Assembly: GCA_963782445.1 (NCBI GenBank)
Contig: CAWAJM010000001.1
Span: 2,854,179 to 2,918,178, forward strand
DNA from: an uncultured Gammaproteobacteria bacterium
GTDB taxonomy: Bacteria > Pseudomonadota > Gammaproteobacteria > Steroidobacterales > Rariloculaceae
Direction of reading: 5' to 3'
Length of the DNA: 64,000 bases
Part shown: positions 2,910 through 63,230 of the stretch, in pieces
Layout: the number at the start of each line of letters is the position of its first letter
How positions within the stretch are numbered: the stretch's first letter is position 1
Translations under genes and position numbers: made by a program
Notes under the pieces: model-generated
Databases searched by the model: none
What the model was told of the DNA's origin: nothing
The model's input: the letters and a program-made list of their open reading frames with translations, nothing else

Positions 2910-3689
2910 ATGCGAAGACGCGCTTCCCCCTTCCTGCTCGCAGCGCTTGCGCTGACCGCCCTGACCGCCGCGGCGGCCCGCGCCGACACGGCCTCCGTCG
3001 CCGTCGCCGCCAACTTCAGCGCGACGCTCGATGCGCTCGCCGCGAAGTTCGAGCAGGTCGCGCGGCACAAACTGCGGATCTCCGCGGGCTCGACGGGTCA
3101 GCTCTATGCGCAGATCACGAAAGGCGCGCCCTTCAACGTCTTCCTCGCCGCCGACGAGCGCCGCCCGAAGCTCCTGGCGCGGGAGGAACTCGGCGATACG
3201 CGCACGCGCTTCACGTATGCCGTCGGCCGGCTCGTGCTCTGGACGAATCAGGTGGACAAGTACCCGAAGCTCGATCTCGCCGTGCTGCGCACCGACCGCT
3301 TCCGCTGGCTCGCCATCGCGAACCCGAAGCTCGCGCCCTACGGGGCGGCGGCGCAGCAGACGCTGCAACGTCTCGGCCTCTGGAAATCGCTCGCGAAGCG
3401 AATCGTGCAGGGGCAAAACATTACGCAGGCATTCGCGATGACCGAGAGCCGCAGCGCCGACCTCGGCCTCGTCGCGCTCTCGCAGGCCGTGAACTACACG
3501 GACAAGGCAACCTATGTCGAAGTGCCGGCGGACATGTATGCGCCGATCCGTCAGGACGCGATCCTGCTCGAGCACGGCCGCGGCAATCGCGCCGCCGTCG
3601 CCTTCCTGAAGTTTCTGGCCGGCCCGGATGCCAGGGCCATCATCGAGAAGTTCGGTTACGAGGTGCCGGCGACGGAGCCGCCGCCCTGA
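2910..3689 (+). CDS. modA: Molybdate ABC transporter periplasmic substrate-binding protein
   Basis: Part of ORF 2697..3689. The start is ATG 2910 (MRRRASPFLLAALALTALTAAAARA, a signal peptide). ModA-like blocks include VAVAANFSATLDALAAKFE, ISAGSTGQLYAQITKGAPFNVFLAAD, RWLAIANPKLAPYGAAAQQTL and ADLGLVALSQ. No modB or modC is adjacent. Confidence 0.8.
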   Translation: MRRRASPFLLAALALTALTAAAARADTASVAVAANFSATLDALAAKFEQVARHKLRISAGSTGQLYAQITKGAPFNVFLAADERRPKLLAREELGDTRTRFTYAVGRLVLWTNQVDKYPKLDLAVLRTDRFRWLAIANPKLAPYGAAAQQTLQRLGLWKSLAKRIVQGQNITQAFAMTESRSADLGLVALSQAVNYTDKATYVEVPADMYAPIRQDAILLEHGRGNRAAVAFLKFLAGPDARAIIEKFGYEVPATEPPP

Positions 3690-3757
3690 GGTGGGGCCGC
3701 CGAAGGCGGGCCGCGTCGCAATGACGCGGCCGCCCACGACGTATCGTCGACTAAGTC

Positions 3758-4039
3758 TTATTGGCTGCTCTGACCCTGCGGCAGGCCGCCCTGGGCGCCC
3801 TGCGAGCCGCTGCTCTGGCCCTGTCCGGTCGCGGCGTCGTACTCCTGACGACTCAGGTGACCGTCGTTGTTCGTGTCGGCCTGGGAGAAATCCAGACCTT
3901 CGACCTTCGCCGCCTCGGCACGGCTGATCATGCCGTCGTTGTTCGTGTCGACCTGTTCGAACGGAGGCGCGGAGCTCTGCTGCGCAAACGCGATCGCCGA
4001 AAACCCAAGCGCCAAGAGCGTGACCATTACTCGTTTCAT
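3758..4039 (-). CDS. Small secreted EF-hand calcium-binding protein
   Basis: Part of ORF 3758..4177. The start is ATG 4039 with GGGAGAAAAG upstream. The signal peptide is MKRVMVTLLALGFSAIAFA/QQ. It has two canonical EF-hand loops, DTNNDGMISRAE and DTNNDGHLSRQE, and a Gly/Gln/Ser-rich tail. Confidence 0.75.
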   Translation of the reverse strand: MKRVMVTLLALGFSAIAFAQQSSAPPFEQVDTNNDGMISRAEAAKVEGLDFSQADTNNDGHLSRQEYDAATGQGQSSGSQGAQGGLPQGQSSQ

Positions 4040-19571: not shown

Positions 19572-19694
19572 GGCTTCAGGCTGCTCGTCGTAAGGGCGGT
19601 GTCGGGACGCTGAGCGCCAGGGATGGCGCTCAGCGAGCGCCCAGGGACGGGTTCACGGCGGTCCCGACACCGCCCTTACGACGAGCCTGAAGCC
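19572..19694 (+). repeat. Nested-palindrome intergenic repeat, copy 1 (full length)
   Basis: The outer arm GGCTTCAGGCTGCTCGTCGTAAGGGCGGTGTCGGGAC pairs with GTCCCGACACCGCCCTTACGACGAGCCTGAAGCC. The inner hairpin is GCTGAGCGCC-aggga-TGGCGCTCAGC. An asymmetric core, GAGCGCCCAGGGACGGGTTCACGGCG, sets the orientation. It lies between the convergent CBS and kinase genes. Confidence 0.85.
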
Positions 19695-19743
19695 CCACCG
19701 GCAACGTCTCGAAAAGCCTCACCGCCGCCGACGAGCGACCGAG

Positions 19744-27300: not shown

Positions 27301-27436
27301 GTTCGCGACGGGCCCGGGCTCCGAGATCCAGCGGCCGCTGGCCATCGTCGTGATCGGCGGCCTCATCACGGCCACGCTGCTGACGCTGATTCTGCTGCCG
27401 ATCCTCTATCGCCGCTTCGGCACGAAGGAGGCCTAG
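24359..27436 (+). CDS. Heavy-metal-efflux RND inner-membrane pump (CzcA/CusA family)
   Basis: Part of ORF 24182..27436. The start is ATG 24359. It opens with MGRLIEFALSQRLLVSLLTVLLAAGGYEAFRHLPIDAFPDISPTQVKVI and carries LGGLAIAIGMLVDAAVVVVENI. The protein is about 1025 aa and has a 12-TM architecture. Confidence 0.85.
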   Translation: MGRLIEFALSQRLLVSLLTVLLAAGGYEAFRHLPIDAFPDISPTQVKVIIKSPGMTPEEVETRITSPVEVELLGIPKQTMLRSNTKYALTDITLDFEEGTDIYWARQQVAERLNNVWGDLPDGVQGGIAPMTTPLGEMFMFTIEGGDLTLAQRRTLLEWTLRPALRTVPGVADVNVLGGYVRSFEVVPDPVRMAARGIDTLTLANAIAANNRNDGAGRLNEGEETLLVRAQGRIQTLADLEAIVVAAHGGIPIRVADVADVRIGSITRYGAVSEDGSKEAVEGLILGLRGANAGAVVEGVRAKLDQLSSALPPGVKINVFYDRGKLVSDAVGTVSEALTEAVVLVLVLLVLFLGNLRAALTVALVLPLAALTTFLLMRLFGMSANLMSLGGLAIAIGMLVDAAVVVVENIETQLAAGGSAAGRLPRLHMIYRAVREVSVPVASGVGIIVIVFLPLLSLQGLEGKLFSPVALTISFALAGSLLLSLTVIPVLASFLLRESAHGKEPWLPRKLGEVYEPLLRWSLAHGNRLIAGAAVALVAMAVAYPFIGKTFMPTMDEGDIIVQLEKLPSITLDQSVKTDERVQKAIMTQVPEVRHIVARVGSDQIGMDPMGLNESDMFFQLAPRDTWRFASKDALIEAIRKVLDQFPGVAYGFTQPIQMRTAEMLTGVRGDVAAKLFGPDLGELGRQAAAIENVLKSIPGSENVFVARNSGVQYLQVDLDRERVGRLGLNGDDLERILHAQIEGLPIGIVQEGVIRTPLVIRAPTQIRESVEGLKNMPLAIEAAPSAPVPVDAVARIKRVDGVVSIARERGQRFTVIRSNVKGRDLVGFVDEARRRAAQEVKLPPGYFVEWGGQFENQQRAAKRLALVVPISIGLIFLLLFSTFGSVRQALLVLMNVPFALIGGVFALLLTGEYMSVPASVGFIALLGIAVLNGVVMVSYFNQLRTRGLSLEETVIQGAKRRLRPVTMTATIAAFGLVPLLFATGPGSEIQRPLAIVVIGGLITATLLTLILLPILYRRFGTKEA

Positions 27437-27439
27437 CCC

Positions 27440-27760
27440 GTGGACGCGACGAACGCCGTGCTCTTCGTGATTTCCGTCTCGCCCGCGCTCGAGGACCAGC
27501 TCATCGACTGGCTGCTGGAGCGCGACGGCGCCCCGGGCTTCTCGAGCTGGCCGAGCAGCGGCCACAGCTCCGACCCTGCGCGGCTGAGCGCCACCGAGAA
27601 GGTCAGCGGCAAGCAGCGGCGGCTCACGTTTCAGGTGCAGCTTCCGGCGGCGCGGCTTCCGGCCTTCACAGCGGCACTGCGCGAGGACCTCGCCGGGGCC
27701 GACGTGCACTACTGGGTCGTGCCGCTCGTCGATGCGGGGTCGTTGCGCGGGTCGGCGTAA
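27440..27760 (+). CDS. DUF3240-like small protein commonly found downstream of HME-RND pumps
   Basis: GTG 27440 lies 4 nt after the pump stop. The sequence is LFVISVSPALEDQLIDWLLERDGAPGFSSWPSSGHSS...KVSGKQRRLTFQVQLPAARLPAFTAALREDLAGADVHYWVVPL. This matches my recollection of DUF3240 proteins. Confidence 0.5.
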   Translation: MDATNAVLFVISVSPALEDQLIDWLLERDGAPGFSSWPSSGHSSDPARLSATEKVSGKQRRLTFQVQLPAARLPAFTAALREDLAGADVHYWVVPLVDAGSLRGSA

Positions 27761-27804
27761 TTCCCGCCGTTGGCGGCAGGCCGCCGACGGCCATCGCCAT
27801 ACCA

Positions 27805-27924
27805 GGCGGAGGCTTGTGCGTAAGGGCGGTGTCGGGACGCTGAGCGCCACGGAGGGCGCTCAGCGAGCCCCCAGGGACGGGTTCACGGCGGCCCCGACAC
27901 CGCCCTTACGCACAAGCCTCCGCC
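27805..27924 (+). repeat. Nested-palindrome intergenic repeat, copy 2 (full length, same orientation as copy 1)
   Basis: GGCGGAGGCTTGTGCGTAAGGGCGGTGTCGGGAC ... GCTGAGCGCC-acggag-GGCGCTCAGC ... GCCCCGACACCGCCCTTACGCACAAGCCTCCGCC. The outer arms differ from copy 1 but remain self-complementary. Confidence 0.85.
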
Positions 27925-28035
27925 TGCCACCGACGTCTCCGCGCCGATGCCTCCGCCCGCGCCCGAAGGTTGACGCCGTCGCCGCCCCCGTCGAAGAATG
28001 CCCGAACAACGAGAACGACACCGGAAGGAAACCCA

Positions 28036-29571
28036 ATGAGACGAGCCACCCGCCGGCAGGCGATGCTATGCGCGTTAGCTGCCGTTGCCGTCGCCGGCCC
28101 GCTCGCGGCCGAAGCTGCGCCTTCGGACTGCGCTTCGCTCGCGAGCCACAAGGCCCCGGGCGCGGCGCTCGAGGTCGAAAGTGCGAAGGAAACGGCGGCC
28201 ACCGACGCGCTGCCCGCGCACTGCCTCGTGCGCGGCGCGCTCGAGCGCCGCAAGGGCGTCGGCGGCGTCGACTACGCGATCCGCTTTGCGCTTGCGCTGC
28301 CCGACGCGTGGAACGGCCGGTTCCTGTTCCAGGGCGGCGGGGGGCTCAACGGCCGCGTGCGGCCGCCCACGGGCGCGACGGCGGCCGGCGATCGGCCCGC
28401 GCTCGCCCGCGGCTTCGCCGTGGTCAGCACGGACAGTGGCCACGAAGGCGCCGTCTTCGACGGCCGCTTTCTGGCCGACCAGGAAGCCGCCCTGAATTTT
28501 CTGTATCTCAGCGTGGGCAAAGTCACGCGCGCGGCGAAAGGGCTTGTCGCGGCGTATTACGGCCGGCCGGCCGCGCACTCGTATTTCGTCGGCTGCTCGA
28601 CGGGCGGCCGCGAGGCCATGATCGCCTCCGAGCGCTATCCGGATGCGTTCGACGGCATCGTGGCCGGCTCTCCGGCCATGCGTACGGGCTACTCGAACAT
28701 CGGCATGCGCTGGGTCGAGGTCGCTATCGACGGGCTTTCGAAGCGCGACGCGCACGGCATGCCGATTCCAGGCACCGGGCTGACCGACTCGGACCGGCAG
28801 CTCATCGTCGACAAGCTCGTCGCGGAGTGCGACGCCAAGGACGGCCTTGCGGACGGCATGATCTTCAACGCGAAGGCGTGCAAATTCGATCCGGCCGAGC
28901 TCACCTGCCGCGGTGCGAACACCTCGCAGTGCCTCGCACCGGCCAAGGTGGCGGCCGTCGAGCGGGCCATGTCGGGCCCCGTGGATGCCAACGGCGACCA
29001 GGTCTATCCCGGCTACCCCTACGACACGGGCATCGCCGCGCACGGACCCGGGGTGCTGCCGGGCGTGCTGAACGGGGCCCCGAGCCCCGTCGACCCGCCC
29101 GTCCCGCCGACGCATCAGGATGTCGACAAGGAGGCCATCGCGGCCGCGACCGGCGTCGAGGCATTGGGGTATACGCGCGCCTGGACAAACTTGAGCTCAT
29201 TTTCATCTCATGGCGGTAAGCTTTTGTTTTACCATGGAATGAGCGACCCTTGGTTCTCGGCCAACGACACGATCGGGTACTACGAGCAACTCGCCGCGGA
29301 CGGCGGCGGCAGCGCGGCGATCGCAAAGTGGAGCCGGCTGTTTCTCGTGCCGGGCATGAGCCATTGCGGGGGCGGTCGCTCGCTCGATCGCTTCGACCTG
29401 CTCGGCGCCGTCGTGGACTGGGTGGAGCACGGCCGAGCGCCGGCGAGCGTGACGGCCACGGGTCCCGCCTTCCCGGGCCGCTCGCGGCCACTGTGTCCGT
29501 ACCCGGCGCATGCCGAGTACCGCGGATCGGGCGATCCGGACGACGCGGGAAATTTCGTCTGCCGGCGTTGA
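28036..29571 (+). CDS. Secreted tannase/feruloyl-esterase family hydrolase
   Basis: Part of ORF 27970..29571. The start is ATG 28036 after GGAAGGA. A signal peptide is present. Family blocks include LPDAWNGRFLFQGGGG, FAVVSTDSGH, the nucleophile motif YFVGCSTGGREAM, RYPDAFDGIVAGSPA and VPGMSHCGGG. Confidence 0.7.
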   Translation: MRRATRRQAMLCALAAVAVAGPLAAEAAPSDCASLASHKAPGAALEVESAKETAATDALPAHCLVRGALERRKGVGGVDYAIRFALALPDAWNGRFLFQGGGGLNGRVRPPTGATAAGDRPALARGFAVVSTDSGHEGAVFDGRFLADQEAALNFLYLSVGKVTRAAKGLVAAYYGRPAAHSYFVGCSTGGREAMIASERYPDAFDGIVAGSPAMRTGYSNIGMRWVEVAIDGLSKRDAHGMPIPGTGLTDSDRQLIVDKLVAECDAKDGLADGMIFNAKACKFDPAELTCRGANTSQCLAPAKVAAVERAMSGPVDANGDQVYPGYPYDTGIAAHGPGVLPGVLNGAPSPVDPPVPPTHQDVDKEAIAAATGVEALGYTRAWTNLSSFSSHGGKLLFYHGMSDPWFSANDTIGYYEQLAADGGGSAAIAKWSRLFLVPGMSHCGGGRSLDRFDLLGAVVDWVEHGRAPASVTATGPAFPGRSRPLCPYPAHAEYRGSGDPDDAGNFVCRR

Positions 29572-53527: not shown

Positions 53528-53691
53528 TAGTGGCCTGTAACGGCTGATTCGGTAGCGCCTGAACGCGTCTGGCGCGCCGGTGCCGCGTTGCTCGTCGTCG
53601 CCATAGTCACCACTATACCTCCTCCTCGCGCCTTGCCCCGACGCGCCATCCATCGCTCAGCCACTACCGAATCAGCCGTTACAGGCCACTA
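53528..53691. mobile_element. MITE-like element: perfect 28-bp terminal inverted repeats around a 108-bp non-coding core
   Basis: TAGTGGCCTGTAACGGCTGATTCGGTAG at 53528..53555 is the exact reverse complement of 53664..53691. The outermost TA on each side could be a TA target duplication. There is no ORF inside. Confidence 0.55.
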
Positions 53692-63009: not shown

Positions 63010-63110
63010 CCGCCTCTCCCCCATGCACGATGGCGATATTTTGACCGAACTCGCGCGGAAACGCCCGCATGCGGCACGGACGCGTTGGTGGCGGGTTTCA
63101 GATGGTGGCG

Positions 63111-63230
63111 GGCTTCAGGCTCGACGCAAGGGCGGTGTCGGGACCGCCGTGAACCCGTCCCTGGGGGCTCGCTGACCGCCATCCCTGGCGGTCAGCGTCC
63201 CGACACCGCCCTTGCGTCGAGCCTGAAGCC
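63111..63230 (-). repeat. Nested-palindrome intergenic repeat, copy 4 (full length, inverted relative to copies 1 and 2)
   Basis: GGCTTCAGGCTCGACGCAAGGGCGGTGTCGGGAC-CGCCGTGAACCCGTCCCTGGGGGCTC-GCTGACCGCC-atccct-GGCGGTCAGC-GTCCCGACACCGCCCTTGCGTCGAGCCTGAAGCC. It is preceded by a small local duplication, GGTGGCGGGTTTCAG / GGTGGCGGGCTTCAG. Confidence 0.85.

Follow-up and report, generated by a model that had tools for sequence, protein, structure and literature searches.

The palindrome called copy 2, in the 64,000-nucleotide stretch of gammaproteobacterial DNA analyzed here (the window), belongs as a solo copy to a family of structured mobile repeats, just 95–125 nt long, that is widespread in the Gammaproteobacteria and for which we found more than 100 loci there. 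Our preferred reading, which we regard as an even call from the sequences compared, is that the family is a REP/MITE-like mobile module that would fold as RNA into a clamped two-site decoy for CsrA/RsmA, and we infer both its transcription and its binding.

Copy 2, its sister copies, and the czc-tannase locus

An inverted-repeat search placed copy 2 at 27803-27926, with two 34-nt arms (27803-27836 and 27893-27926) that are 100% complementary and a 56-nt core between them (Table 1). The initial annotation had set the stem at 27805-27924; the palindrome is real, and its arms are 2 nt longer on each side. The arm sequences that it quoted for copies 1 and 2 are exact, and the single mismatch that it described near the core of copy 2 is A27837 opposite C27892, which is an A-T pair in copies 1 and 3. 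It had also stated that the arms have diverged between copies 1 and 2 yet remain self-complementary, and pair-by-pair comparison bears this out. There are nine double-sided changes between copies 1 and 2, ten between copies 2 and 3, and two between copies 1 and 3, all of them Watson-Crick, and no one-sided change was found within the P1 helix (the outer stem formed by the arms) when copies 1–3 were compared pairwise. The three copies thus have a common core and distal stems that differ by 2–10 fully compensated base-pair changes, and the window arms are perfect, with no wobble pairs.

Two features of the sister copies lie beyond what had been annotated: the 5' arm of copy 1 contains a 3-nt bulge, GCT (at about 19583-19585), and there is a third copy, on the minus strand. 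Copy 1 also has a C-to-G change in P3, giving GAGCGC, and in the inner hairpin (P2) of copy 3 a G:C pair has become C:G, with pairing kept. A CCACC-type tail follows each window copy, and 17–33 nt downstream of the copy lies a degenerate direct repeat of the end of its own 3' arm; the tail of copy 2 falls within the segment that is missing from a related genome (see below). A covariance model of the family detected only these three copies in the 64-kb window, at 81–90 bits, and the next best matches (28 bits or less) were the reverse strands of these copies.

Folding of the copies, which had been proposed as a check, gave a very stable structure. As RNA, copies 1–3 adopt the same shape at -107 to -118 kcal/mol (z = -11 to -12.5; 0 of 200 shuffles as good for each). 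For copy 2, the RNA fold has an energy of -110 kcal/mol, compared with -61 ± 4 kcal/mol for shuffles (z = -11.6), and the DNA fold has an energy of -70 kcal/mol, compared with -32 ± 3 kcal/mol (z = -13), with 0 of 200 shuffles as good in either case.

Table 1. Features of copy 2, its sister copies, and the surrounding locus
Feature	Position	Strand	Evidence and remarks
Copy 2 P1 5' arm (CAGGCGGAGGCTTGTGCGTAAGGGCGGTGTCGGG)	27803..27836	+	34/34 complementary to 27893-27926
Copy 2 P2 hairpin	27839..27864	+	10-bp stem GCTGAGCGCC/GGCGCTCAGC; folds; loop fits CA.GGA.G
Copy 2 P2 hexaloop ACGGAG	27849-27854	+	Reads CACGGAGG
Copy 2 P3 hairpin GAGCCC-CCAGGGAC-GGGTTC	27865..27884	+	Loop is CAGGGACG; kept in all copies fetched
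Copy 2 junction strand ACGGCGGC	27885..27892	+	Read from sequence; ACGGCG conserved in the family
Copy 2 P1 3' arm	27893..27926	+	Inverted-repeat search
Copy 2 3' tail CCACCGAC	27927..27934	+	CCACC... form common to all three window copies
Copy 1	19572..19695	+	Core search; covariance model 84.3 bits; empty site in related genome
Copy 3	63111..63230	-	Core search; 34/34 arms; covariance model 90.1 bits
Tannase promoter-like site TTGACG-18-AAGAAT	27970..27999	+	Conserved in element-free orthologous locus; outside element
DUF3240-tannase intergenic region			120 nt in MAG L142, 275 nt in window; copy 2 in window
CBS-kinase intergenic region			96 nt in MAG L142, 346 nt in window; copy 1 in window

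Copy 2 had been placed between the end of a czc-like operon and the promoter region of a tannase-family gene, and the neighbors and the promoter-like site were found as described: HlyD/CusB, AcrB/CzcA, and DUF3240 genes lie upstream, and a gene with the Pfam Tannase domain starts at 28036. The accompanying suggestion that the repeat could act as a terminator or insulator fared less well. There is no T-run after the stem, a scan for terminator-like sites in 27400-28200 found none, and family members show no preferred orientation relative to co-directional genes (22 versus 21). As the stem is followed by CCACCGACG, without a U/T tract, copy 2 is not a canonical intrinsic terminator.

The tannase protein is 89% identical to one encoded on OY969712.1, which belongs to a MAG (MFD02416.bin.1.163) that has two window-type copies elsewhere (L057 and L059). 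The syntenic locus of this MAG (L142) has the same order of genes as the window (CBS, histidine kinase, response regulator, czcB, czcA, DUF3240, tannase), and the covariance model found no element across its 21.5 kb. With synteny preserved and copies 1 and 2 missing from L142, the two copies represent gains or losses since divergence, which indicates that the family is mobile. Past the extra segment, the window and L142 can be aligned well across the promoter-like TTGACG-18-AAGAAT and the leader, and both the order of genes and the promoter-like site are unchanged in the element-free locus; the promoter-like site marks ancestral DNA downstream of the insertion.

Comparison with the empty site at this one locus defined no clean target-site duplication at the junctions of copy 2. 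Two routes to the arms were considered and rejected. Insertion of the core into a pre-existing palindrome finds no counterpart in empty GGCTTCAGGC or GGCGGAGGC palindromes, which were absent from the window and the related loci. Copying of the distal arms from the flanking target is favored by the empty site, in which GGCTTGCG lies beside GTCTCCGCC and GCCTCCGCC lies further downstream, but it was rejected as a general explanation: a 7/8 match is expected by chance, copies 1 and 3 have the same distal arms at different loci, and the distal arm of copy 2 is also present in other genomes (L024 and L059).

Family architecture, covariation, and the folding strand

The exact core 19-mer CCAGGGACGGGTTCACGGC matched at least 119 stretches in a collection of species-representative genomes. 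Among the matches listed, the hosts were Xanthomonas, Stenotrophomonas, Lysobacteraceae, Alcanivorax, Alloalcanivorax, Pseudomonas, Halopseudomonas, Marinobacter, Halieaceae, Cellvibrionales, Porticoccaceae, Steroidobacteraceae, Methylococcales, Thiotrichales, Ectothiorhodospiraceae, Perlucidibaca, Amnimonas, and Sodalis, and all of the confirmed copies came from Gammaproteobacteria or from records labeled just Pseudomonadota. One record labeled Nocardiopsis carries Stenotrophomonas-like sequence. Two matches in Gemmatimonadota (L056 and L086) were discarded as chance occurrences of the 19-mer within coding sequence, and a match in Vicinamibacteria (L058) was left unjudged because it lies at a contig edge.

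All real copies have the same architecture, in which P1, P2, and P3 are arranged around a three-way junction. P1 is the GC-rich outer stem, with a sequence that differs by lineage and a median length of 30 bp (range 22–66 bp, the upper lengths including spurious outward extension by the fold). P2 has a variable stem of 8–10 bp and a conserved loop, P3 is a short hairpin (GAGCCC-CCAGGGAC-GGGUUC), and the family has a conserved junction strand, ACGGCG. From an alignment of real copies (A3, described below) we built a covariance model, which found 140 copies in 97 sources. Subfamily B2, common in Xanthomonas, Stenotrophomonas, Pseudomonas profundi, P. saliphila, Alcanivoracaceae, and Perlucidibaca, has UAC/GUA in place of CCC/GGG as its inner P3 stem but keeps the loop, so P3 also covaries. 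The first data set was gathered by the exact 19-mer, and the invariance of P3 within it is therefore partly an ascertainment artifact; this bias was removed by using copies that the model found without an exact 19-mer. P1 is a mosaic. The distal 13 nt of the copy 2 arm, GGAGGCTTGTGCG, recur in a copy from a Steroidobacteraceae MAG (L024) that has another proximal stem, and GGCGGAGGC of the same arm recurs in L059; distal segments common to copies with different proximal segments suggest exchange between copies.

The family is apparently undescribed. At gathering thresholds it has no match in Rfam 15, and at E ≤ 10 there were just generic miRNA-hairpin matches, which we rejected as long-hairpin artifacts. 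A BLAST search of plasmid sequences with the element gave no match, and one with the czc region gave just distant czcA hits. When metagenomes were scanned with GGCGGTGTCGGGACGCTGA, a 19-mer specific to a subfamily, there were 21 hits, all of them chance matches in coding sequence, and the one hit in a viral scan was not an element, so there was no sign of carriage by phages in that scan. In open-access text, we found neither the core or loop-stem strings nor a paper linking CsrA/RsmA to repeat families, and the combination of a REP/MITE-type repeat with a CsrA-site RNA would be new if confirmed. The cross-genus mobile family, the three-way junction core, the CsrA/RsmA-type GGA loops, and the strand-specific fold all go beyond the initial annotation.

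That annotation had proposed that a hairpin is conserved rather than a primary sequence, and had named covariation among more copies and conservation across species as the checks. Alignment A3 consists of 30 diverse, real, contiguous copies with 20-nt arms each. In this alignment, 84.7% of the cells are paired, compared with 62.4 ± 1.0% in shuffled alignments, and the covariation score is 0.558, compared with 0.155 (0 of 500 shuffles reached either value). Cells changed on both sides number 265, compared with 91 in shuffles, and compensatory changes are present in 20 of the 23 P1 pairs and 7 of the 8 P2 pairs. When the partner columns were slid by 1–3, pairing fell to 26–52%. A larger set of 138 distinct model-aligned copies, which leans toward structure because it was fitted to the covariance model, gave 93.3% paired cells (61.9% shuffled) and a covariation score of 0.727 (0.176 shuffled), with all eight P2 pairs covarying. 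Covariation in P1 and P2 is thus strongly supported, the structure is kept across genera, and the proposal stands. We conclude that the sequence of P1 is free to change while its pairing is maintained.

Transitions in a stem are expected to yield G·T and A·C pairs equally unless the fold of one strand is selected. In non-redundant copies, with the junction pairs left out, we counted 56 G·T/T·G pairs and 7 A·C/C·A pairs; among interior cells, which have two Watson-Crick pairs flanking each side, the numbers were 30 and 3 (p = 1.4e-6). Because the elements are found in both orientations relative to their neighbors, mutational strand bias should cancel, and the G·T excess then identifies the strand with GAGCCCCCAGGGACGGGTTCACGG as the one whose single-stranded fold matters. 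We conclude that selection to fold acts only on the strand bearing GAGCCCCCAGGGACGGGTTCACGG. The selected single-stranded form could be RNA or ssDNA.

These results make it very improbable that the arms are complementary by mechanism alone, through intra-element gene conversion, template switching, or arm inversion in selfish DNA with no structural selection and no cellular role. Conversion predicts equal numbers of G·T and A·C intermediates, rather than the 30 and 3 observed; P2, an independent short hairpin, covaries equally well; and many genera share the same architecture and loops. What such a mechanism does accommodate is the perfection of the window arms, with their lack of wobble pairs, the mosaic structure of P1, and the arm-to-arm recombination that is evident from an inverted interior at a Xanthomonas locus (L103; see below).

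GGA loops and CsrA/RsmA

The Csr/Rsm system is best characterized in the Gammaproteobacteria, and virulence, motility, biofilm formation, and carbon flow are under the control of CsrA/RsmA. Both P2 and P3 bear the motif CANGGAYG. In model-found copies, the P3 loop varies within CA(G/U/A/C)GGA(C/U)G and no further, and the P2 loops include CAUGGAUG, CAGGGAUG, CAUGGACG, and CAAGGAUG, with CAGGACG in Alcanivorax and CACGGAGG in copy 2. The pattern CA.GGA.G is present twice in 106 of the 140 copies and once in 32, and the spacing from motif to motif is 22–24 nt (23 nt in 83 of 104 copies). Per kb, the sense strand has 19.2 occurrences, the antisense strand 0.24, and surrounding DNA 0.31, an enrichment of 62-fold over the surroundings.

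These loops can be compared with the sites defined for CsrA and its relatives. The repeats of CsrB have the sequence CAGGA(U/A/C)G; SELEX with CsrA gave the consensus RUACARGGAUGU, in which GGA lies within a hexaloop that flanking pairs close, and a preference for stems of 4 bp or fewer; NMR structures of RsmE show an ANGGAN hexaloop; and one CsrA dimer can bridge two sites over a distance of 10–63 nt, optimally above 18 nt (PMC7652899). The consensus for RsmE is (A/U)CANGGANG(U/A) (PMC6849547). Both loops of the element fit CAGGA(U/A/C)G, (A/U)CANGGANG(U/A), and RUACARGGAUGU, and so match the published site of high affinity for CsrA/RsmA, and their spacing is within the 10–63 nt dual-site range. 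Given loops that match the consensus at a dual-site spacing, the module resembles a two-site trap, closed by a clamp, for a single CsrA/RsmA dimer. Two observations do not fit this picture as well. The P2 stems, at 8–10 bp, are more stable than the 4 bp or fewer preferred in SELEX, which counts against the CsrA reading, and CsrA binding does not account for the conservation of GAGC and (U)UCACGGCG around P3 or of nucleotides in the junction. The window contains no homology to a curated Csr/Rsm family at Rfam gathering thresholds.

Xanthomonas has no homologues of CsrB or RsmXYZ, and RsmU is the sole antagonist RNA known there (PMC7694677). Identity of the element with RsmU was rejected, because the RsmU primers give a different sequence. 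The case for CsrA/RsmA is accordingly drawn from the match of the loops to the consensus, a constant spacing that falls in the dual-site range, the presence of the motif on one strand, and the restriction of the family to the Gammaproteobacteria, together with the lack of CsrB/RsmXYZ homologues in Xanthomonas and the difference in sequence from RsmU.

On our preferred reading, the folding strand would act as RNA. P2 and P3 would each expose a hexaloop, A-N-G-G-A-Y, with a C-G closing pair, the two being 22–24 nt apart, and one CsrA/RsmA dimer could clamp them together, such that a transcribed copy would serve as a high-affinity two-site decoy or as a site for the recruitment of CsrA to the host transcript. 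P1 would keep the two loops in register and shield the module from exonucleases. A perfect duplex of ~30 bp is a plausible substrate for RNase III, which could cut within P1 and so free the module from read-through transcripts. The arms would stay complementary because copies that lose the clamp cease to function or to spread, and recombination or inversion between the arms may help to homogenize them. The view of the family as a selfish repeat and the view of it as a carrier of CsrA sites are compatible.

It is improbable, in our estimation, that the element is instead a passive hairpin of the REP or Correia kind, acting in RNA or DNA as a road-block or insulator between czc and tannase, as a 3' stabilizer of mRNA, or as an RNase III site, with loops that have no specific ligand. 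Such a role would leave unexplained the strict CANGGAYG loops, their 22–24-nt spacing, and a junction that is conserved across orders, as well as the 10:1 asymmetry between G·T and A·C pairs. The lack of a U-tract and the empty terminator scan also weigh against it, as does the orthologous locus, which works without the element. It draws support from the very stable fold of both strands, the position of copy 2 just past the upstream stop codons and ahead of the tannase promoter, and the ~30-bp perfect duplex, which suits RNase III.

Genomic placement and comparison with known systems

Crude gene calls around 72 copies placed 23 between convergent genes, 22 in sense and 21 in antisense orientation between co-directional genes, and 6 between divergent genes. 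The element thus prefers the 3' ends of genes and avoids divergent promoter regions. Among co-directional neighbors there is no orientation bias, which is not what a function purely as mRNA-embedded RNA would predict. No convincing promoter was found upstream of solo copies, and no conserved sigma-70-like motif was seen in the spacers of divergent pairs of copies. A start codon beside Xanthomonas copies (ATG..., encoding MHTDHL) was rejected as a gene start, as it is part of the repeat.

Copies that are 500 nt or less apart are mostly divergent, with their 5' ends facing (28, compared with 4 convergent and 2 tandem), and the P1 arms of paired neighbors are unrelated. Arrays in Xanthomonas and P. 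profundi have A and B2 types in turn, with alternating orientation, a layout that matches that described for REPs in BIMEs (PMC2817692). At the Xanthomonas locus L103, the interior is in opposite orientations in two B2 copies that have identical arms and outer flanks, indicating that the core can be inverted by recombination between the arms.

An alternative is that the family is a DNA element of the REP/BIME or REPIN kind, in which ssDNA hairpins are moved by a host HUH/Y1 (RAYT-like) or other transposase, the loops and junction are features that the enzyme recognizes and cleaves, and the likeness to CsrA sites is coincidental. We consider this explanation unlikely, although several properties suit it: the high copy number, extragenic location, and preference for gene 3' ends; the ratio of 28 divergent to 4 convergent and 2 tandem pairs; the alternation of A and B2, which resembles that of Y and Z REPs in BIMEs (PMC2817692); the selection on the fold of one strand, as for the substrates of IS200/IS605 and REP systems; the strong fold of copy 2 as DNA; and the presence/absence polymorphism between related genomes. 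However, the GTAG/CGTC tag is missing, the element is 3–5 times the length of a REP, and its conserved center and variable arms are the opposite of what is found in REPs, REPINs, and MITEs. No recurrent protein family or transposase-like neighbor was found within ±2.5 kb of about 90 loci from several genera. The explanation would also require that two loops fit an 8-nt RNA-binding consensus at optimal spacing, with a 62-fold enrichment and on one strand, by what would be a large coincidence. The BIME-like arrays point to a life cycle at the level of DNA and count against an RNA as the active form.

A wider and more doubtful proposal, which extrapolates from the same sequence comparisons, is that the family consists of mobile CsrA/RsmA decoy cassettes. 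A selfish repeat would then spread a two-site trap through intergenic DNA across the Gammaproteobacteria, buffer or tune free CsrA/RsmA by the total transcribed load, and supply much of the "missing" RsmA antagonism in Xanthomonadaceae, which lack CsrB/RsmXYZ homologues, and flips of the core might switch between the GGA loops and their complement on a transcript. If the CsrA/RsmA function of our preferred reading is borne out, post-transcriptional control by CsrA/RsmA would be shaped by dispersed, mobile decoys that vary in copy number, in addition to a few dedicated sponge sRNAs. Xanthomonas, Stenotrophomonas, and their relatives, which have no CsrB/RsmXYZ homologues and where only RsmU is known (PMC7694677), would also gain a candidate RsmA antagonist that can be tested. 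Even without a CsrA function, the family is a clean natural case of a structure-constrained, strand-specific mobile repeat; being widespread and absent from Rfam 15, it is worth annotating, as it yields spurious open reading frames and breaks assemblies.

Like REP, BIME, and REPIN sequences, the element is interspersed, extragenic, and multi-copy (three copies in 64 kb), has a hairpin with strand-specific imperfect pairing, prefers gene 3' ends, and forms clusters of alternating orientation with two alternating types of unit. Unlike these sequences, it is 95–125 nt long rather than the 20–40 nt of a REP and has a three-way junction rather than a simple stem-loop. Neither in the window nor in the other genera does a GTAG/CGTC tag flank P1, and no linked RAYT was seen within ±2.5 kb of copies; in addition, it is the center that is conserved and the arms that vary, in contrast to REP and REPIN sequences.

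ERIC/IRU, the Correia/nemis elements of Neisseria, and YPAL of Yersinia are intergenic palindromes of ~100–150 nt that are co-transcribed, form long RNA hairpins, and show presence/absence polymorphism; their terminal inverted repeats are conserved, and a TA duplication marks their insertion. The element resembles them, on these general properties, as a palindromic intergenic unit with presence/absence polymorphism, and it differs from them in that its termini are variable and its internal junction and protein-site-like loops are conserved. As with MITEs, copies are present or absent at orthologous loci (L142 has neither copy 1 nor copy 2), but the element has no conserved terminal inverted repeats, and its termini vary more than any other part of it, whether copies from one genome or from different genomes are compared.

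With CsrB/CsrC, RsmX/Y/Z/V/W, and the RsmU of Xanthomonas, the element has in common GGA motifs in hairpin loops at a dual-site spacing. Dedicated genes, one or a few in number, encode those sponge RNAs and have a terminator and a promoter that depends on GacA, whereas the element has just two sites per unit and a long clamp stem, and is dispersed, multi-copy, and mobile.

Window copies and their surroundings

Each of the three copies of the element in the window carries a CCACC-type 3′ tail, and in each the end of the 3′ arm of the outer stem recurs as a degenerate direct repeat 17–33 nt downstream. In copy 2, for example, GCCTCCGCC is found at 27916 and 27949. The copy 2 downstream repeat is ancestral DNA, because the empty site in the related MAG, which lacks copies 1 and 2, has the same repeat. 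The pattern of tails and downstream repeats may reflect target preference. The 5′ strand of the short hairpin P3 of copy 1 contains an uncompensated C-to-G change (GAGCGC vs GAGCCC), which, if the A·C mismatch in copy 2 is set aside, is the sole unpaired substitution among the three copies.

Directly 3′ of the DUF3240 stop codon and 5′ of copy 2 lies a small GC-rich hairpin (CCGCCGTTGGCGGCAGGCCGCCGACGG) that is followed by no T-run; the related MAG also has a small hairpin at the equivalent position, but a different one. The longest inverted repeat of the window (TAGTGGCCTGTAACGGCTGATTCGGTAGCGCC...) has 38-nt arms (92% complementary) separated by an 88-nt spacer. It is unrelated to copies 1–3 and may be another MITE-like element.

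Coordinates of the features, in the window or in loci (L) from other genomes
Feature	Location	Position
Tail and direct repeat, copy 1	window	19684-19730
Tail and direct repeat, copy 2	window	27909-27966
Tail and direct repeat, copy 3	window	63075-63125
P3 substitution, copy 1	window	19625-19630
Small hairpin	window	27766-27792
Long inverted repeat	window	53528-53691
B2 pair with reversed interiors	L103 (Xanthomonas sp. LMG 31884)	1065-1570
Outer inverted repeat	L009	1780-2090
Outer inverted repeat	L005, L012, L030, L083	
Short tandem repeats	L080 (Xanthomonas)	1100-1510
Composite units	L035, L078 (Pseudomonas profundi)	1-720; 380-860
Composite units	L003 (X. hortorum)	3180-3800

Probable false gene calls and a doubtful record

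Stretches of short GGGAATCGGGAAT-type tandem repeats occur at L080 and other Xanthomonas loci, where the intergenic repeats are also crossed by long spurious ORFs (translated, for example, as "...AASMPRKVPRRWAGKD..."). Both are likely to give rise to false gene calls. In a record titled Nocardiopsis yanglingensis (L091), the element and its flanks are nearly identical to Stenotrophomonas copies; this actinobacterial assembly probably contains foreign DNA or carries the wrong label.

Inverted, nested, and tandem copies

Two Xanthomonas copies of subfamily B2 have identical arms and outer flanks, and their interiors are mutually reverse-complementary; the core is therefore invertible between the arms. 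Some copies are enclosed by a second, outer inverted repeat, as in a Pseudomonas MAG (CCAGGGAGACACTGATTAAT...ATTTAATCAGTGTTTCCCTGG) and in one MAG with ATTCGGAACAGCT flanks. Such copies either lie within a different repeat or form part of a larger composite.

At three loci, the unit B2(-)–spacer–A(+), composed of one copy of each subfamily, is tandemly repeated, with a unit length of ~373 nt at L035, and the spacers share the motif GGTTTT(A/C)A. These tandems are BIME-like arrays in which the repeats alternate in orientation.
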